Source of the DNA: Escherichia coli
Lineage (GTDB): Bacteria; Pseudomonadota; Gammaproteobacteria; Enterobacterales; Enterobacteriaceae
Strand: one strand, 5' to 3'
Length of the DNA stretch: 64,000 bases
Assembly (NCBI RefSeq): GCF_030013595.1
Contig: NZ_CP122768.1
The first letter of the stretch is position 1, and the number at the start of each line of letters is the position of its first letter. The notes under the pieces were generated by a model. That model did not search any database and was not told where the DNA came from. It was given only the letters and a program-made list of their open reading frames with translations. The translations under genes were made by a program, and so were the position numbers. Positions 5,064 through 39,450 of this stretch are shown in pieces.

Positions 5064-5901
5064 TCTGAGCGGCTACAACTTTGCCTACCTCGACGAGCAG
5101 ACCAAACGCATGATCCGCCGCGCCATCTTAAAAGCGGTGGCGATCCCCGGTTATCAGGTGCCGTTTGGCGGGCGCGAGATGCCGATGCCGTACGGCTGGG
5201 GAACTGGTGGTATCCAGCTTACCGCCAGCGTGATTGGCGAAAGCGACGTGTTGAAGGTGATTGACCAGGGTGCGGATGACACCACCAACGCCGTGTCGAT
5301 TCGCAACTTCTTTAAGCGCGTGACCGGGGTAAACACCACTGAACGTACGGACGATGCGACGCTTATCCAGACGCGTCACCGCATCCCCGAAACGCCGCTG
5401 ACCGAAGATCAGATCATTATCTTCCAGGTGCCAATCCCGGAACCGCTGCGCTTTATCGAGCCACGCGAAACGGAGACCCGCACTATGCACGCGCTGGAGG
5501 AGTACGGCGTGATGCAGGTGAAACTGTATGAAGATATCGCCCGCTTCGGTCATATCGCCACCACCTATGCTTATCCGGTGAAGGTGAACGGGCGCTACGT
5601 GATGGACCCGTCGCCGATCCCGAAATTCGATAACCCGAAAATGGACATGATGCCCGCCCTGCAGCTGTTCGGCGCAGGGCGCGAGAAGCGCATCTATGCG
5701 GTGCCGCCGTTTACCCGCGTGGAAAGCCTCGATTTCGACGATCACCCGTTCACCGTTCAGCAGTGGAATGAGCCATGCGCCATCTGCGGATCGACCCACA
5801 GCTATCTTGATGAAGTGGTGCTGGATGACGCCGGAAACCGCATGTTTGTCTGCTCCGATACCGATTATTGCCGCCAACAGAGCGAGGCGAAAAGCCAATG
5901 A
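5056..5901 (+). CDS. phnJ: C-P lyase catalytic subunit PhnJ (radical SAM-like, Cys-rich C-terminus)
   Basis: 281 aa ORF; C-terminal cysteine cluster CAICGS...CSDTDYC; overlaps phnI end. Confidence 0.92.
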   Translation: MANLSGYNFAYLDEQTKRMIRRAILKAVAIPGYQVPFGGREMPMPYGWGTGGIQLTASVIGESDVLKVIDQGADDTTNAVSIRNFFKRVTGVNTTERTDDATLIQTRHRIPETPLTEDQIIIFQVPIPEPLRFIEPRETETRTMHALEEYGVMQVKLYEDIARFGHIATTYAYPVKVNGRYVMDPSPIPKFDNPKMDMMPALQLFGAGREKRIYAVPPFTRVESLDFDDHPFTVQQWNEPCAICGSTHSYLDEVVLDDAGNRMFVCSDTDYCRQQSEAKSQ

Positions 5902-6656
5902 ATCAACCGTTACTTTCGGTCAACAACCTGACCCACCTTTACGCGCCGGGCAAAGGCTTTAGCGATGTCTCTTTTGATTTATGGCCGGGGGAAGTGCTAG
6001 GCATCGTCGGGGAATCCGGCTCCGGGAAGACCACGCTGCTGAAATCAATCTCCGCGCGCCTGACGCCGCAGCAGGGGGAAATTCACTATGAAAACCGTTC
6101 CCTCTATGGCATGAGCGAGGCCGACCGCCGTCGCCTGCTGCGCACCGAATGGGGCGTGGTGCATCAGCATCCGCTCGACGGCCTGCGCCGCCAGGTGTCG
6201 GCAGGCGGCAATATCGGCGAGCGGCTGATGGCGACCGGGGCGCGTCATTACGGCGACATCCGCGCCACCGCGCAGAAGTGGCTGGAAGAGGTGGAGATTC
6301 CCGCCAACCGGATCGACGACCTGCCGACCACCTTTTCCGGCGGCATGCAGCAACGTTTGCAGATTGCCCGCAACCTGGTGACGCATCCGAAGCTGGTGTT
6401 TATGGACGAGCCAACCGGCGGGCTGGATGTATCGGTACAGGCGCGCCTGCTCGATCTGCTGCGCGGTCTGGTGGTGGAGCTGAATCTGGCGGTGGTGATT
6501 GTCACCCACGATCTGGGCGTCGCCCGCCTGCTGGCGGACCGTTTGCTGGTGATGAAACAGGGGCAAGTGGTGGAGAGTGGGTTAACCGACCGCGTGCTCG
6601 ACGACCCTCACCATCCATATACCCAGCTGCTGGTGTCATCGGTTTTGCAGAATTGA
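5898..6656 (+). CDS. phnK: C-P lyase system ATP-binding protein PhnK
   Basis: 252 aa from [11 protein letters not shown]; Walker [10 protein letters not shown]; ATGA start/stop overlap with phnJ. Confidence 0.9.
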
Positions 6657-6662
6657 GCCAGT

Positions 6663-6748
6663 GCCGGATACGGCGTAAACGCCTTATCCGGCCGACAAAT
6701 GCGCTCCCCGTAGGTCGGATAAGACGCGTCAGCGTCGCATCCGACACC
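6663..6748. repeat. REP/BIME-type palindromic units in the phnK-phnL intergenic spacer
   Basis: Two imperfect palindromes of the gccggata...ttatccggc and ggataagacgcg...cgtcgcatcc type. Confidence 0.7.
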
Positions 6749-6766
6749 CGAACCACGAGGCGAAAA

Positions 6767-7447
6767 ATGATTAACGTACAAAACGTCAGTAAAACCTTCA
6801 TCCTGCACCAGCAAAACGGCGTGCGCCTGCACGTCTTACAACGTGCCTCGCTCACCGTCAACGCAGGCGAATGCGTGGTGCTCCACGGCCACTCCGGCAG
6901 CGGCAAATCAACTCTGCTGCGCTCGCTGTACGCCAACTATCTGCCCGATGAAGGGCAAATCCAGATCAAACATGGTGACGAGTGGGTAGACCTGGTCACT
7001 GCACCAGCGCGCAAAGTGGTGGAGATCCGCAAAACCACCATCGGCTGGGTGAGCCAGTTTCTGCGCGTCATCCCGCGTATTTCGGCACTGGAAGTGGTGA
7101 TGCAGCCTCTGCTCGATACCGGCGTACCGCGTGAAGCCTGCGCCGCTAAAGCCGCCCGATTACTGACGCGCCTGAACGTGCCTGAACGCCTGTGGCACCT
7201 GGCACCATCGACCTTCTCCGGTGGCGAACAGCAGCGTGTCAACATCGCCCGTGGCTTTATCGTCGACTACCCCATTCTGCTGCTCGACGAACCTACCGCC
7301 TCGCTGGACGCTAAAAACAGCGCCGCCGTAGTGGAACTGATCCGCGAAGCCAAAGCCCGCGGCGCGGCCATCGTCGGTATCTTCCATGACGAAACCGTGC
7401 GCGAGCAAGTCGCCGACCGCCTGCACCCAATGGGAGTCTCTTCATGA
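6767..7447 (+). CDS. phnL: C-P lyase system ATP-binding protein PhnL
   Basis: 226 aa from MINVQNVSK; Walker [10 protein letters not shown] and ABC signature FSGGEQQRV; the 432 aa track ORF 6149..7447 is an arginine-rich frame artifact upstream. Confidence 0.9.
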
Positions 7448-8580
7448 TTATCAATAACGTCAAACTGGTGCTGGAAAACGAGGTGGTACACGGTTCTCTG
7501 GAGATGCAGGACGGCGAAATCCGCGCCTTTGCCGAAAGCCAGAGTCACCTGTCAGAAGCAATGGACGGCGAAGGCGGCTGGCTGCTACCGGGGCTGATTG
7601 AGCTGCATACCGATAATCTGGATAAATTCTTCACCCCGCGTCCAAAAGTGGACTGGCCCGCCCACTCGGCAATGAGTAGCCACGACGCGCTGATGGTGGC
7701 GAGCGGCATCACCACCGTGCTGGACGCGGTGGCGATTGGCGACGTGCGCGACGGCGGCGATCGGCTGGAGAATCTGGAGAAGATGATCAACGCCATCGAA
7801 GAGACGCAGAAACGCGGCGTCAACCGCGCCGAGCACCGTCTGCATCTGCGCTGCGAACTGCCGCATCACACCACGCTGCCGCTGTTTGAAAAACTGGTGC
7901 AGCGCGAACCGGTGACGCTGGTGTCGCTGATGGATCACTCGCCGGGCCAGCGCCAGTTCGCCAATCGCGAGAAGTATCGCGAATATTATCAGGGCAAATA
8001 CTCGCTCACCGATGTGCAGATGCAGCAGTACGAAGAGGAACAGCTGGCGCTTGCCGCACGCTGGTCACAGCCTAATCGCGAAACTATCGCCGCAATGTGC
8101 CGCGCGCGACACATTGCGCTCGCCAGCCACGATGACGCCACGCACGCGCACGTTGCCGAATCTCACCAGCTTGGCAGCGTGATCGCCGAATTTCCCACCA
8201 CGTTCGAAGCGGCAGAAGCCTCGCGCAAGCATGGCATGAACGTGCTGATGGGCGCGCCGAATATCGTGCGCGGCGGTTCGCACTCCGGCAACGTGGCGGC
8301 CAGTGAACTGGCGCAGCTTGGCCTGCTGGATATCCTCTCTTCCGACTACTACCCCGCCAGCCTGCTCGATGCGGCATTTCGCGTCGCCGATGACGAGAGC
8401 AACCGCTTTACGCTGCCGCAGGCGGTGAAGCTGGTGACTAAAAATCCGGCGCAGGCGCTTAATCTTCAGGATCGCGGAGTGATTGGCGAGGGCAAACGCG
8501 CCGACCTGGTGCTGGCGCATCGCAAGGGCAACCACATTCATATCGACCACGTCTGGCGTCAGGGTAAAAGGGTGTTCTGA
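7444..8580 (+). CDS. phnM: Amidohydrolase-family PhnM (ribosyl-triphosphate phosphonate diphosphohydrolase)
   Basis: 378 aa ORF overlapping phnL by 4 nt; synteny. Confidence 0.9.
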
Positions 8581-10318: not shown

Positions 10319-10345
10319 GGGAAAATACCCGCGCCGGCCCCTATA

Positions 10346-10675
10346 TCAACGCCCATACTCATCTTCCATTCTCCGCTCTTCATCCTCCAGTTGCCGACGC
10401 TCCTGATCAAGCTGGCGCTGGCGATCGTCCAGCTGCCTGCGGCGATCTTCAAACTGACGGCGGCGGTCGTCATATTGTCTGCGCCGATCGTCGCTCACTT
10501 CACGCTGCCAGCCGTCGTCGTGCGAATCTTCATAGTCTCGCCCACGGTCAGGGTTATAAGCATCGTTAATCGCCTGCTGAATATTGCCAATGGTGTCGTC
10601 GATAATATCGGCCTGGGCCGGAACGGTAGACAGCGTGAGCAGGGTGAATAAAAGAAATAGCGGAAAGCGTTTCAT
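10346..10675 (-). CDS. yjdP: Small secreted low-complexity protein YjdP
   Basis: 109 aa ORF; signal peptide followed by Arg/Asp/Gln/Glu-rich repeats (DDRRRQ...). Confidence 0.8.
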   Translation of the reverse strand: MKRFPLFLLFTLLTLSTVPAQADIIDDTIGNIQQAINDAYNPDRGRDYEDSHDDGWQREVSDDRRRQYDDRRRQFEDRRRQLDDRQRQLDQERRQLEDEERRMEDEYGR

Positions 10676-10743
10676 TAGCCAACCTCAAAAAGAAACTCTA
10701 TCCACATTAGTCATTACTCATCCATGCAAGTAGTGGACGAATC

Positions 10744-11061
10744 TCAATTTCTCCGCTGCTCTATTGCCGTAATCGCCTCCACGCGTTGTTGATGACGACC
10801 GCCTTCGTACTGCGCGCCCAGCCACGCATCCACAATCATTTTTGCCAGTTCGAGGCCAACCACTCGTGAACCAAAAGCCAGTGCAACTTCACTGGCGTAA
10901 TGCGGATAATCAGTGCGCTCTGACGGCCTGGTTTCTTTATCAATCCCCTCACTCATTGACCATGAATAAAAGGCTGGCACAGCAACGCGGAATCCTGCGG
11001 TGCCAGCGACATGACCGCCCATTGCTCCGGTACGTTTTTTAATAAAAAACACCGGTTGCAT
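10744..11061 (-). pseudogene. rpiB: Ribose-5-phosphate isomerase B remnant: RpiB-like N- and C-terminal segments with the central catalytic region missing
   Basis: 105 aa ORF with SERTDYPHYAS motif and RpiB/LacAB-like C-terminus but about 45 residues shorter than RpiB; residues upstream of the motif are in a foreign frame. Confidence 0.6.
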
Positions 11062-11313
11062 TGATTAATTGTGCTCAGTATTTGCCGAAGTACAATATAT
11101 ATAATAAATATATAAAACACCTCATATTATTTACAGAAATAATGAATTCGCGTAATTTTCCCTCTTCAGCACAAATGCCTAATAAAATGGCGCGTTCAGC
11201 TCACACTTCTACTTATTAAAGTCGCAATTTCCCAATTATGATAACGCCAGCTTCAAATGACGTATTTTGCATGGGTTACATATTTACGACATAAATGATA
11301 AATGGAGATTTAT

Positions 11314-18544: not shown

Positions 18545-20692
18545 ATGAAAAAAGTCGTCACGGTTTGCCCCTATTGCGCATCAGGTTGCAAAATCAACCT
18601 GGTCGTCGATAACGGCAAAATCGTCCGGGCGGAGGCAGCGCAGGGGAAAACCAACCAGGGTACCCTGTGTCTGAAGGGTTATTATGGCTGGGACTTCATT
18701 AACGATACCCAGATCCTGACCCCGCGCCTGAAAACCCCCATGATCCGTCGCCAGCGTGGCGGCAAACTCGAACCTGTTTCCTGGGATGAGGCACTGAATT
18801 ACGTTGCCGAGCGCCTGAGCGCCATCAAAGAGAAGTACGGTCCGGATGCCATCCAGACGACCGGCTCCTCGCGTGGTACGGGTAACGAAACCAACTATGT
18901 AATGCAAAAATTTGCGCGCGCCGTTATTGGTACCAATAACGTTGACTGCTGCGCTCGTGTCTGACACGGCCCATCGGTTGCAGGTCTGCACCAATCGGTC
19001 GGTAATGGCGCAATGAGCAATGCTATTAACGAAATTGATAATACCGATTTAGTGTTCGTTTTCGGGTACAACCCGGCGGATTCCCACCCAATCGTGGCGA
19101 ATCACGTAATTAACGCTAAACGTAACGGGGCGAAAATTATCGTCTGCGATCCGCGCAAAATTGAAACCGCGCGCATTGCGGACATGCACATTGCACTGAA
19201 AAACGGCTCAAACATCGCGCTGTTGAATGCGATGGGTCATGTCATTATTGAAGAAAACCTGTACGACAAAGCGTTCGTCGCTTCCCGTACAGAAGGCTTT
19301 GAAGAGTATCGTAAAATCGTTGAAGGCTACACGCCGGAGTCGGTTGAAGATATCACCGGCGTCAGCGCCAGTGAGATTCGTCAGGCGGCACGGATGTATG
19401 CCCAGGCGAAAAGCGCCGCCATCCTGTGGGGCATGGGTGTAACCCAGTTCTACCAGGGTGTGGAAACCGTGCGTTCTCTGACCAGCCTCGCGATGCTGAC
19501 TGGTAACCTCGGTAAGCCGCATGCGGGTGTAAACCCGGTTCGTGGTCAGAACAACGTGCAGGGTGCCTGCGATATGGGCGCGCTGCCGGATACGTATCCG
19601 GGCTATCAGTACGTGAAAGATCCGGCTAACCGCGAGAAATTCGCCAAAGCCTGGGGCGTGGAAAGCCTGCCAGCGCATACCGGCTATCGCATCAGCGAGC
19701 TGCCGCACCGCGCAGCGCATGGCGAAGTGCGTGCCGCGTACATTATGGGCGAAGATCCGCTGCAAACTGACGCGGAGCTGTCGGCAGTACGTAAAGCCTT
19801 CGAAGATCTGGAACTGGTCATCGTTCAGGACATCTTTATGACCAAAACCGCGTCGGCGGCGGATGTTATTTTACCGTCAACGTCGTGGGGCGAGCATGAA
19901 GGCGTGTTTACTGCGGCTGACCGTGGCTTCCAGCGTTTCTTCAAAGCGGTTGAACCGAAGTGGGATCTGAAAACGGACTGGCAAATCATCAGTGAAATCG
20001 CCACCCGTATGGGTTATCCGATGCACTACAACAACACCCAGGAGATCTGGGATGAGTTGCGTCATCTGTGCCCGGATTTCTACGGTGCGACTTACGAGAA
20101 AATGGGCGAACTGGGCTTCATTCAGTGGCCTTGCCGCGATACTTCAGATGCCGATCAGGGGACTTCTTATCTGTTTAAAGAGAAGTTTGATACCCCGAAC
20201 GGTCTGGCGCAGTTCTTCACCTGCGACTGGGTAGCGCCAATCGACAAACTCACCGACGAGTATCCGATGGTACTGTCAACGGTGCGTGAAGTTGGTCACT
20301 ACTCTTGCCGTTCGATGACCGGTAACTGTGCGGCACTGGCAGCGCTGGCTGATGAACCTGGCTACGCACAAATCAATACCGAAGACGCCAAACGTCTGGG
20401 TATTGAAGATGAGGCATTGGTTTGGGTGCACTCGCGTAAAGGCAAAATTATCACCCGTGCGCAGGTCAGCGATCGTCCGAACAAAGGGGCGATTTATATG
20501 ACCTACCAGTGGTGGATTGGTGCCTGTAACGAGCTGGTTACCGAAAACTTAAGCCCGATTACGAAAACGCCGGAATACAAATACTGCGCCGTGCGCGTCG
20601 AGCCGATCGCCGATCAGCGCGCCGCCGAGCAGTACGTGATTGACGAGTACAACAAGTTGAAAACTCGCCTGCGCGAAGCGGCACTGGCGTAA
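18545..20692 (+). CDS. fdhF: Formate dehydrogenase H, selenocysteine-containing molybdoenzyme; in-frame TGA at 18962-18964 read as Sec
   Basis: Track ORFs 18545..18964 and 19013..20692 are in the same frame, separated only by TGA after VDCCARV; 715 aa total; N-terminal Fe-S cysteine motif CPYCASGC. Confidence 0.93.
18962..19008 (+). promoter_or_regulatory. SECIS selenocysteine-insertion stem-loop immediately 3' of the fdhF UGA
   Basis: Position directly after the in-frame UGA; exact structure boundaries not folded here. Confidence 0.7.
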
Positions 20693-21475: not shown

Positions 21476-21480
21476 GGTAG

Positions 21481-21547
21481 GCCTGATAAGACGCGTTAAG
21501 CGTCGCATCAGGCATCCACACATTGCCGGGTGGATATCCCCGGCAAT
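21481..21547. repeat. REP palindromic units between convergent yjcO and gltP
   Basis: gcctgataagacgcgttaagcgtcgcatcaggc plus attgccggg...cccggcaat inverted repeat. Confidence 0.7.
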
Positions 21548-21553
21548 CTTCAA

Positions 21554-39289: not shown

Positions 39290-39450
39290 TGACATACAAT
39301 TAAAGCATCAACACCAACCGGAACCTCCACCACGTGCTCGAATGAGGTGTGTTGACGTCGGGGGAAACCCTCCTGTGTACCAGCGGGATAGAGAGAAAGA
39401 CAAAGACCGGAAAACAAACTAAAGCGCCCTTGTGGCGCTTTAGTTTTGTT
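39290..39450 (+). ncRNA. ryjA: Candidate small RNA (ryjA position) ending at a terminator hairpin that overlaps the soxR 3' end
   Basis: Strong hairpin aaactaaagcgcc / ggcgctttagttt at 39416..39446 followed by T-rich tract; remembered ryjA location between soxR and ghxP; 5' boundary is a guess. Confidence 0.35.

Follow-up and report, generated by a model that had tools for sequence, protein, structure and literature searches.

A y/z2 pair of REP palindromes in the only open junction between phnF and phnP of Escherichia coli

The 110-nt spacer between phnK and phnL in the window (the whole 64-kb stretch of Escherichia coli DNA that was analysed) holds a BIME-type pair, that is, a y and a z2 REP in inverse orientation whose GTAG-side feet face each other across a 13-nt linker, and this assignment is practically certain. 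On an account that we hold to be fairly probable as a whole, the pair, sitting in the sole open junction of this gene row, would fold on the phn mRNA and may give rise to a modest bias of phnC-K over phnL-P. An earlier note on this DNA had described a spacer of about 110 bp holding two REP-like palindromes, and both the coordinates and the consensus scan agree with it. The features of the junction are the following.

5898..6656, plus strand: phnK, C-P lyase ABC ATPase, stop TGA at 6654-6656 (ORF list, PGAP and K-12 alignment)
6657..6766, plus strand: phnK-phnL intercistronic spacer, 110 nt
6663..6696, minus strand (GTAG-first): y-type REP, on the mRNA strand GCCGGATACGGCG-TAAA-CGCCTTATCCGGCCGAC; 2 mismatches to the consensus; hairpin of -21.5 kcal/mol, z = -5.4
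6697..6709, no strand assigned: linker of 13 nt, AAATGCGCTCCCC, joining the GTAG-side feet of the y and z2 units
6710..6745, plus strand: z2-type REP with its 5' GTAG intact (GTAGGTCGGATAAGACGCGTCAGCGTCGCATCCGAC); 2 mismatches to the consensus; hairpin of -21.3 kcal/mol, z = -5.1
6757..6769, plus strand: phnL Shine-Dalgarno sequence GAGG (6757-6760) and ATG (6767-6769), kept 3' of the REP insertion (sequence reading)
6767..7447, plus strand: phnL, second C-P lyase ABC ATPase (ORF list and PGAP)

The gene ends were taken from the ORF list and from the PGAP annotation of strain HCP5S3_I2, whose region is 100% identical to the window. The phnK TGA ends at 6656 and the phnL ATG begins at 6767, and the sequence between the two genes reads TGA-GCCAGT-[GCCGGATACGGCG TAAA CGCCTTATCCGGCCGAC]-AAATGCGCTCCCC-[GTAGGTCGGATAAGACGC GTCA GCGTCGCATCCGAC]-ACCCGAACCAC-GAGG-CGAAAA-ATG. 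From phnF to phnP, the successive junctions measure 0, -4, -1, -8, -4, +110 (K-L), -4, -1, -14 and +1 nt, and K-L is the only one that neither abuts nor overlaps. The operon had been called otherwise overlapping, which is correct from phnF to phnP but not for phnC-D, D-E and E-F, which are separated by gaps of 24, 60 and 20 nt. Metcalf and Wanner, in 1993, reportedly treated phnC-P as one 14-gene operon. Because the pair occupies a non-overlapping junction, downstream of the phnK stop and upstream of the phnL Shine-Dalgarno sequence, it could be inserted without breaking a gene or a coupled start, and we infer that the insertion was tolerated since the junction was open. That K-L is the sole non-overlapping junction also favours a different explanation, namely that the pair is a neutral or selfish passenger, mobile-element debris in the only permissive gap of the operon, which is rarely lost precisely and has no measurable effect on phn expression; we regard this as possible, if doubtful.

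REP units were sought with a two-half scan of the Stern consensus (GCCKGATGCGRCG ... CGYCTTATCMGGCCTAC; in the form used, GCC(G/T)GATGCG(G/A)CG ... CG(C/T)CTTATC(C/A)GGCCTAC, with 30 specified positions), with 0-12 nt between the halves, on both strands and by explicit Hamming matching. Exactly four units were found within the 64-kb window, at 6663-6696, 6710-6745, 21477-21513 and 31945-31979, with 2, 2, 0 and 1 mismatches over the 30 positions, respectively, and the same scan gave zero matches among 30 Markov-shuffled windows. A fixed-loop REP pattern search gave 1 match against 0.00 expected, and chance palindromes are ruled out by these two controls. The similarity to the REP consensus on which the earlier note had staked its reading is thus present, at 0-2 mismatches in all four units and in none of the shuffles. 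When the scan was loosened to 9 mismatches, the extra matches were only opposite-strand self-matches and three weak intragenic ones; the three sites (phnK-phnL, yjcO-gltP and acs-yjcH) are therefore the full REP content of the window. All of the units are extragenic and lie just 3' of ORFs, between tandem genes at phnK-phnL and acs-yjcH and between convergent genes at yjcO-gltP.

The units are imperfect palindromes, with stems of 8+4 or 7+5 bp split by an internal mismatch, as seen by inverted-repeat search and by folding. Each of the four REP hairpins folds at -20 to -22 kcal/mol (z = -5 to -7), and the RNA fold of 6645-6780 reaches -49.9 kcal/mol (z = -3.9). Unrelated chromosomal loci gave BLAST matches confined to the REPs, of 37-38 nt and 100% identity, at up to 8 places per genome with a 28-nt word, and the z2 unit at 6710-6745 itself has 100% identical copies at unrelated genomic places; the sequences are therefore members of a dispersed repeat family. 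G+C-rich hairpins of this kind superficially resemble terminator stems, and the spacer could be taken for an intrinsic terminator, or for an internal promoter, with phn divided into two transcription units. We rejected both readings, which we find scarcely credible: no U-tract follows either stem, neither an intrinsic-terminator-like nor a sigma-70-like promoter site was found in 6657-6766, the sequences are those of a dispersed repeat family and not of a locus-specific signal, and phnC-P is reportedly a single operon.

For the assignment of the y and z2 types, the K-12 y REP oligonucleotide (PMC3479197) and the K-12 gltP-yjcO array served as references. The y unit is almost the same sequence as the y REP of the TnpA-REP crystal structure (PMC3479197), with which it shares its centre, GGCG-TAAA-CGCC, and the centre of the second unit, GACGC-GTCA-GCGTC, is of the z2 type, as in the z2 units of K-12 gltP-yjcO. 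The phnK-phnL pair is an already known feature of E. coli genomes. REPs within the phn cluster are said to have been noted already in the original phn sequence papers; the current RefSeq records of K-12 MG1655 and W3110 carry no REP features. At gathering thresholds, the only Rfam matches in the whole window were SECIS_2 of fdhF (87 bits) and the Hfq-binding sRNA sraL (153 bits), at 18957-19011 and 39307-39447, a result that is uninformative on REPs because they are not an Rfam family.

REPs are the commonest repeat of E. coli, with 584 units (PMC3333891) or 355 annotated elements (bioRxiv 10.64898/2026.03.23.713779) in K-12. The units of the window share with the E. coli REP/PU repeats of the GTAG-3 family (PMC3733652; PMC3333891) the consensus, the imperfect palindrome of 34-37 nt, the GTAG foot, the placement 3' of ORFs and the dispersal, and nothing substantive differs except that the y unit of the junction has GTCG instead of GTAG. 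Heterodimers of y and z2 with unequal loop length are the rule among enterobacterial GTAG-3 REPs (PMC3733652). Under the definitions of y, z1, z2 and BIME in PMC3333891, the phnK-phnL pair is a BIME and, as judged from its composition, probably one of the BIME-2 or atypical kind, with which it shares the y + z2 make-up, the inverse orientation, the short (13-nt) linker and the unequal loops; BIME-2, defined by a short S linker and s/l/r flanks, are usually tandem, whereas a single pair is present here (compare the 11 units of K-12 gltP-yjcO). The BIME-1 class, in which y and z1 units are joined by a long L linker that includes an IHF site, was rejected for this pair, the second unit being of the z2 type and the linker just 13 nt long.

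The composition of the pair also bears on a possible role at the DNA level, as a binding site for gyrase, IHF, HU or Pol I or as a supercoiling insulator. Such activities have been described for BIMEs in general (PMC3333891, PMC2267715), and palindromes can form cruciforms on either strand (both strands were folded at the yjcO site). However, it is in the long L linker of BIME-1 that the IHF site is located, and not in a y + z2 pair with a 13-nt linker (PMC3333891), a test of REP325 saw no nucleoid compaction or REP-REP contacts (10.64898/2026.03.23.713779), and the sequence sets this locus apart in no way from hundreds of other REPs; we therefore consider a DNA-level role very improbable.

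The foot tag of the y unit is GTCG in the window strain (CGAC at 6693-6696) and also in strain L088, but CTAC/GTAG in K-12 and seven other compared strains; within the window, the GTAG tag is found in three of the four units (6710-6713, 21477-21480 and, as CTAC, 31976-31979). In vitro, any change of GTAG abolishes binding and cleavage by TnpA-REP (PMC3333891, PMC3479197), and the y unit of the window strain (6663-6696), with its GTCG tag, is therefore probably no longer a TnpA-REP substrate. REPs are non-autonomous palindromic repeats that are thought to be spread or rearranged by the RAYT/TnpA-REP transposase, and the proposed REPIN mobile unit consists of two inverted REPs with a short spacer (PMC3116915, PMC2817692). 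The phnK-phnL pair is alike in its inverted arrangement and short spacer, and likewise shows presence/absence and copy-number polymorphism between strains and genera; it differs in its mutated y foot tag, while the z2 unit retains both GTAG and the stem mismatch, the two features that binding by the transposase requires. The presence/absence pattern between species is at most indirect evidence of movement. The transposase gene, which in E. coli is located between yafL and fhiA, lies outside the 64-kb window.

The earlier note had also placed similar REP-like units after yjcO (21481..21547) and after acs (31945..32007), where we find the following.

21477..21513, plus strand: single z2 REP, 0 mismatches, 1 nt past the yjcO stop (21475), between the convergent genes yjcO (plus strand) and gltP (minus strand, 21554-22867)
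21522..21547, no strand assigned: non-REP hairpin ATTGCCGGGTGGATATCCCCGGCAAT, adjoining the gltP stop, -15 to -18 kcal/mol, with no consensus match, kept in K-12
31945..31979, minus strand: single y REP, 1 mismatch, 9 nt past the acs stop (31935), within the co-oriented gene row acs-yjcH-actP

Each of the two ranges thus contains one REP, but the second hairpin in each is not a REP, the one near acs (31982-32008) being excluded by the consensus scan. In addition, the GTAG of the yjcO unit begins at 21477 and not at 21481, where the range had been started.

Both spacers differ between strains. The gltP-yjcO spacer (21476-21553) is 78 nt long here, with its one z2 REP, and 641 nt long in K-12 (4295795-4296435; L096, 1796-2436), where it holds 11 alternating z2/y units with a 113-nt period; in other strains this spacer is longer by inserts of about 400-750 bases. 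Between acs and yjcH, a single y REP is present here vs a z2+y pair in K-12. Such free variation of REP number at other places (1 vs 11 units at gltP-yjcO, 1 vs 2 at acs-yjcH) is a point in favour of the passenger explanation. The acs-yjcH spacer (31936-32160) also contains, beyond the y REP and the small hairpin, a repeat of about 130 nt (approximately 32020-32155), of which E. coli genomes carry copies, about 77% identical, at a median of 4 intergenic places each, and which presumably resembles the ERIC/IRU element (TCCCAGGAGC ... GTGACTGGGG core). The exact allele of this spacer in the window occurs in about 335 of 5,426 genomes, and the K-12 sequence there is different.

The phnK-phnL locus is present in 5,398 of 5,426 complete E. 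coli genomes, and a 411-nt junction probe was matched in one piece in 4,841 of the 5,396 locus-bearing genomes (about 90%). The 110-nt spacer of K-12 MG1655 differs from that of the window by three substitutions. In 550 of the 5,426 genomes (about 10%), the REP pair is replaced by an unrelated 176-nt element (L003 and L004, 251-426 in both), and the specific REP sequence is therefore dispensable. The 176-nt element folds into one long hairpin of -95 kcal/mol (z = -7); parts of it recur at a few further genomic places, and this long-hairpin repeat may be a BoxC-related candidate. Its flanks show 0 differences in 250 nt from those of the REP-type alleles L090 and L093, which indicates that the junction was swapped by recombination inside a mosaic region. 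The occurrence of an unrelated element in 10% of E. coli is what would be expected of a passenger, but nearly every E. coli retains a structured filler of one or the other kind (4,841 with the REP pair and 550 with the alternative, of 5,396), which speaks against it. Note that the 3' half of phnK and the 5' half of phnL (6216-7207) are unusually polymorphic in E. coli, with a pairwise difference of 13% at third-codon positions; over 5800-7600, most genomes are 90-95% identical to the window, vs 95-99% for the yjcO and acs regions, and the phnK/phnL haplotypes are clearly mosaic.

For the comparison between species, one genome per species was scanned with PhnK, which gave 80 loci, and the flanking genes were located in each. 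Lengths of phnJ-K above 20 nt in distant taxa are probably heuristic start-codon misassignments, and only the Enterobacterales values were used. In all 16 Enterobacteriaceae (PhnK at least 88% identical), the overlap is 4 nt at phnJ/K and 4-14 nt at phnL/M, and K-L is always a positive gap. In eight of the 16, this gap is 7-10 nt long without a palindrome, typically TAA-GAGGCCAAC-ATG with the stop abutting the Shine-Dalgarno sequence (the compact, REP-less 'TAAGAGGCCAACATG' type), and the motif GAGGC(C/G)AA(C/A)ATG, which directly follows the phnK stop in these REP-less species, is the same as that at phnL in the window. With half of the related Enterobacteriaceae lacking a filler, the REP pair is clearly dispensable for C-P lyase function.

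The other eight Enterobacteriaceae carry a filler at K-L, and the fillers of other genera are different insertions from the E. coli pair. There is one REP-type palindrome in Enterobacter cloacae, in Kluyvera and in strain RIT691, there are two in Pluralibacter, Citrobacter werkmanii and Cedecea sulfonylureivorans and three in E. asburiae, and Pseudocitrobacter has a 298-nt array (L005, 2260-2557). This array, from Pseudocitrobacter faecalis DSM 27453, is the E. coli 176-nt element expanded to 3.4 tandem 61-nt units, and the PhnK and PhnL of this strain are 99% and 97% identical to those of the window, a hint that the phn cluster has been exchanged between genera. Palindromes of Pseudomonas type, several with GTAG/CTAC feet, are found in five Pseudomonas/Stutzerimonas loci, whose relatives have junctions of -4 to 11 nt. 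No GTAG-tagged filler was found in the Serratia, Yersinia, Pantoea, Rahnella, Hafnia and Erwinia loci among the 80, and the first five of these genera are without GTAG-3 REPs (PMC3733652); one Erwinia locus (L035) does have a structured spacer, of 107 nt, but it bears no GTAG tag.

In total, strongly structured K-L fillers are present in 14 of the 80 species. The Enterobacter-type fillers share a T-run after the TGA stop and may therefore stem from one old insertion, so that the sequences point to at least four or five distinct, independent filler events and not fourteen. Four states of the junction are thus known, namely an empty gap of 7-10 nt, 1-3 REPs, an unrelated long hairpin and a tandem array. 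The presence of fillers follows the lineages that have REP families (the Escherichia/Enterobacter/Citrobacter group and Pseudomonas; for the GTAG-3 distribution, see PMC3733652), and filled and empty junctions occur together within Enterobacter, Citrobacter and Cedecea, both of which agree with passenger insertion.

Sequence constraint was examined by comparing ten diverse strains of E. coli, all of them carrying the REP pair. Only 5 of the 110 spacer sites segregate, with a mean pairwise difference of 1.7%, vs 99 of 294 adjacent third-codon positions (13.3%), which is a roughly 8-fold lower pairwise difference in the spacer (Fisher p = 9e-11); at first and second codon positions, 17 of 588 sites segregate (1.0%). 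Three of the variable sites lie in the REPs, as a G.U-to-A-U change, a loop base and a foot tag, and no pairing is lost; the 13-nt linker is invariant across the 10 strains. A spacer about 8-fold less polymorphic than the neighbouring third-codon positions, with substitutions that spare the stems, speaks against a mere passenger. However, the low spacer diversity could equally stem from gene conversion among REPs or from recent recombinational spread and not from functional selection. The first 63 nt of phnL are also low in diversity (1 of 21 third positions).

A stronger claim would be that the junction is a selected 'hairpin slot', in which structured RNA punctuation of whatever origin sets the ratio of phnC-K to phnL-P. 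Selection of this kind would explain why the spacer is about as conserved as non-synonymous sites amid highly polymorphic synonymous flanks, but we think it unlikely. Under it, palindromes of at least four or five unrelated families would have been captured by the slot and kept there, namely the E. coli y/z2 pair, the Enterobacter/Citrobacter-type REPs, the long-hairpin element of 176-298 nt and at least two REP types of Pseudomonas.

The reading that we favour, a modest expression bias caused by the folded pair, takes its mechanism from REPs elsewhere. The earlier note had suggested a role in mRNA segment stability or in the expression of distal genes, which is compatible with established REP biology and, by analogy with it, may apply here. 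In the phnC-P transcript induced through the Pho system, the pair would form two hairpins, each of about -21 kcal/mol and lacking a U-tract. By obstructing 3'-to-5' exonucleases, these hairpins would help the phnC-K segment to survive, and transcription into phnL-P may be partially attenuated with the assistance of Rho. They would also slow termination at the phnK stop, which is expected because just 6 nt separate the UGA from the first stem, and phnL initiation from its own Shine-Dalgarno sequence would replace stop/start-proximal coupling. The net outcome would be a modest bias of phnC-K over phnL-P; that the pair shifts expression measurably in this direction falls, in our estimate from these analogies, just short of probable.

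The closest precedents also lie between co-oriented genes of an operon. These are the REPs of malE-malF (Newbury et al. 1987, as cited in PMC12306157) and REP325 of yjdM-yjdN, which in K-12 lies a few kb upstream of phnC. Here the mRNA upstream was shown to be protected and the downstream gene to be partially attenuated in a Rho-dependent way, and phnK-phnL is argued from them by analogy. REP325 is a partial Rho-dependent terminator and a stabiliser of the upstream mRNA, and genome-wide, tandem gene pairs that contain REPs have a higher upstream/downstream RNA ratio (both 10.64898/2026.03.23.713779). Note that REP325 consists of 12 units vs 2 at phnK-phnL, and that REP effects are context-dependent and at times absent (10.64898/2026.03.23.713779).

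A second precedent concerns translation. According to PMC12306157 and PMC4513850, Liang, Rudd and Deutscher (2015) found that a REP less than 16 nt from a stop codon lowers translation of the upstream gene via stalling, mRNA cleavage and trans-translation. The distance from the stop to the first paired base is 6 nt at phnK, 5 nt at yjcO and 9 nt at acs, so that all three REP loci of the window lie within the same <16 nt range. In view of what such REPs do elsewhere (PMC12306157; 10.64898/2026.03.23.713779), two transcribed hairpins of -21 kcal/mol so close to a stop (6 nt) are unlikely to be inert, which is a further argument against a passenger. The passenger explanation does agree with uninduced K-12 RNA-seq counts (baseMean of 32 for phnK, 118 for phnL and 43 for phnM), which are near background and show no upstream bias. 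PhnK and PhnL both bind the core complex as dimers (PMC9947105), so that there is no obvious stoichiometric need for a step between K and L.

As it stands, the finding has little significance, since the cataloguing of REP/BIME elements in E. coli goes back four decades, K-12 has this pair at the same place, and effects of REPs inside operons on mRNA decay, on Rho-dependent read-through and on termination-proximal translation are already on record. What is new here is the context of the sole open junction, the alternative 176-nt allele, the cross-species fillers and the low spacer diversity. The added value is comparative: the four-state junction is a clean natural experiment on the action of REPs inside an operon, and the C-P lyase pathway offers an easy growth read-out, with a phosphonate as sole phosphorus source. 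If recurrent occupancy and conservation reflect selection, the junction would be a compact case of a host co-opting selfish palindromes for operon punctuation.

Another large difference in REP copy number lies just upstream of the phn operon, in the yjdM-yjdN spacer, which is 159 nt long in the strain matching the window (L097, 7016-7174) vs about 657 nt in K-12 with its 12-unit REP325. Around 10320-11300 of the window, compared with 4304-4314 kb of K-12 (L097, 18500-19500), the rpiR-alsBACEK block of K-12 is absent in the matching strain, in which a truncated rpiB-like ORF (105 aa) is left beside yjdP. The phnE gene, frameshifted in K-12, is intact in the matching strain.
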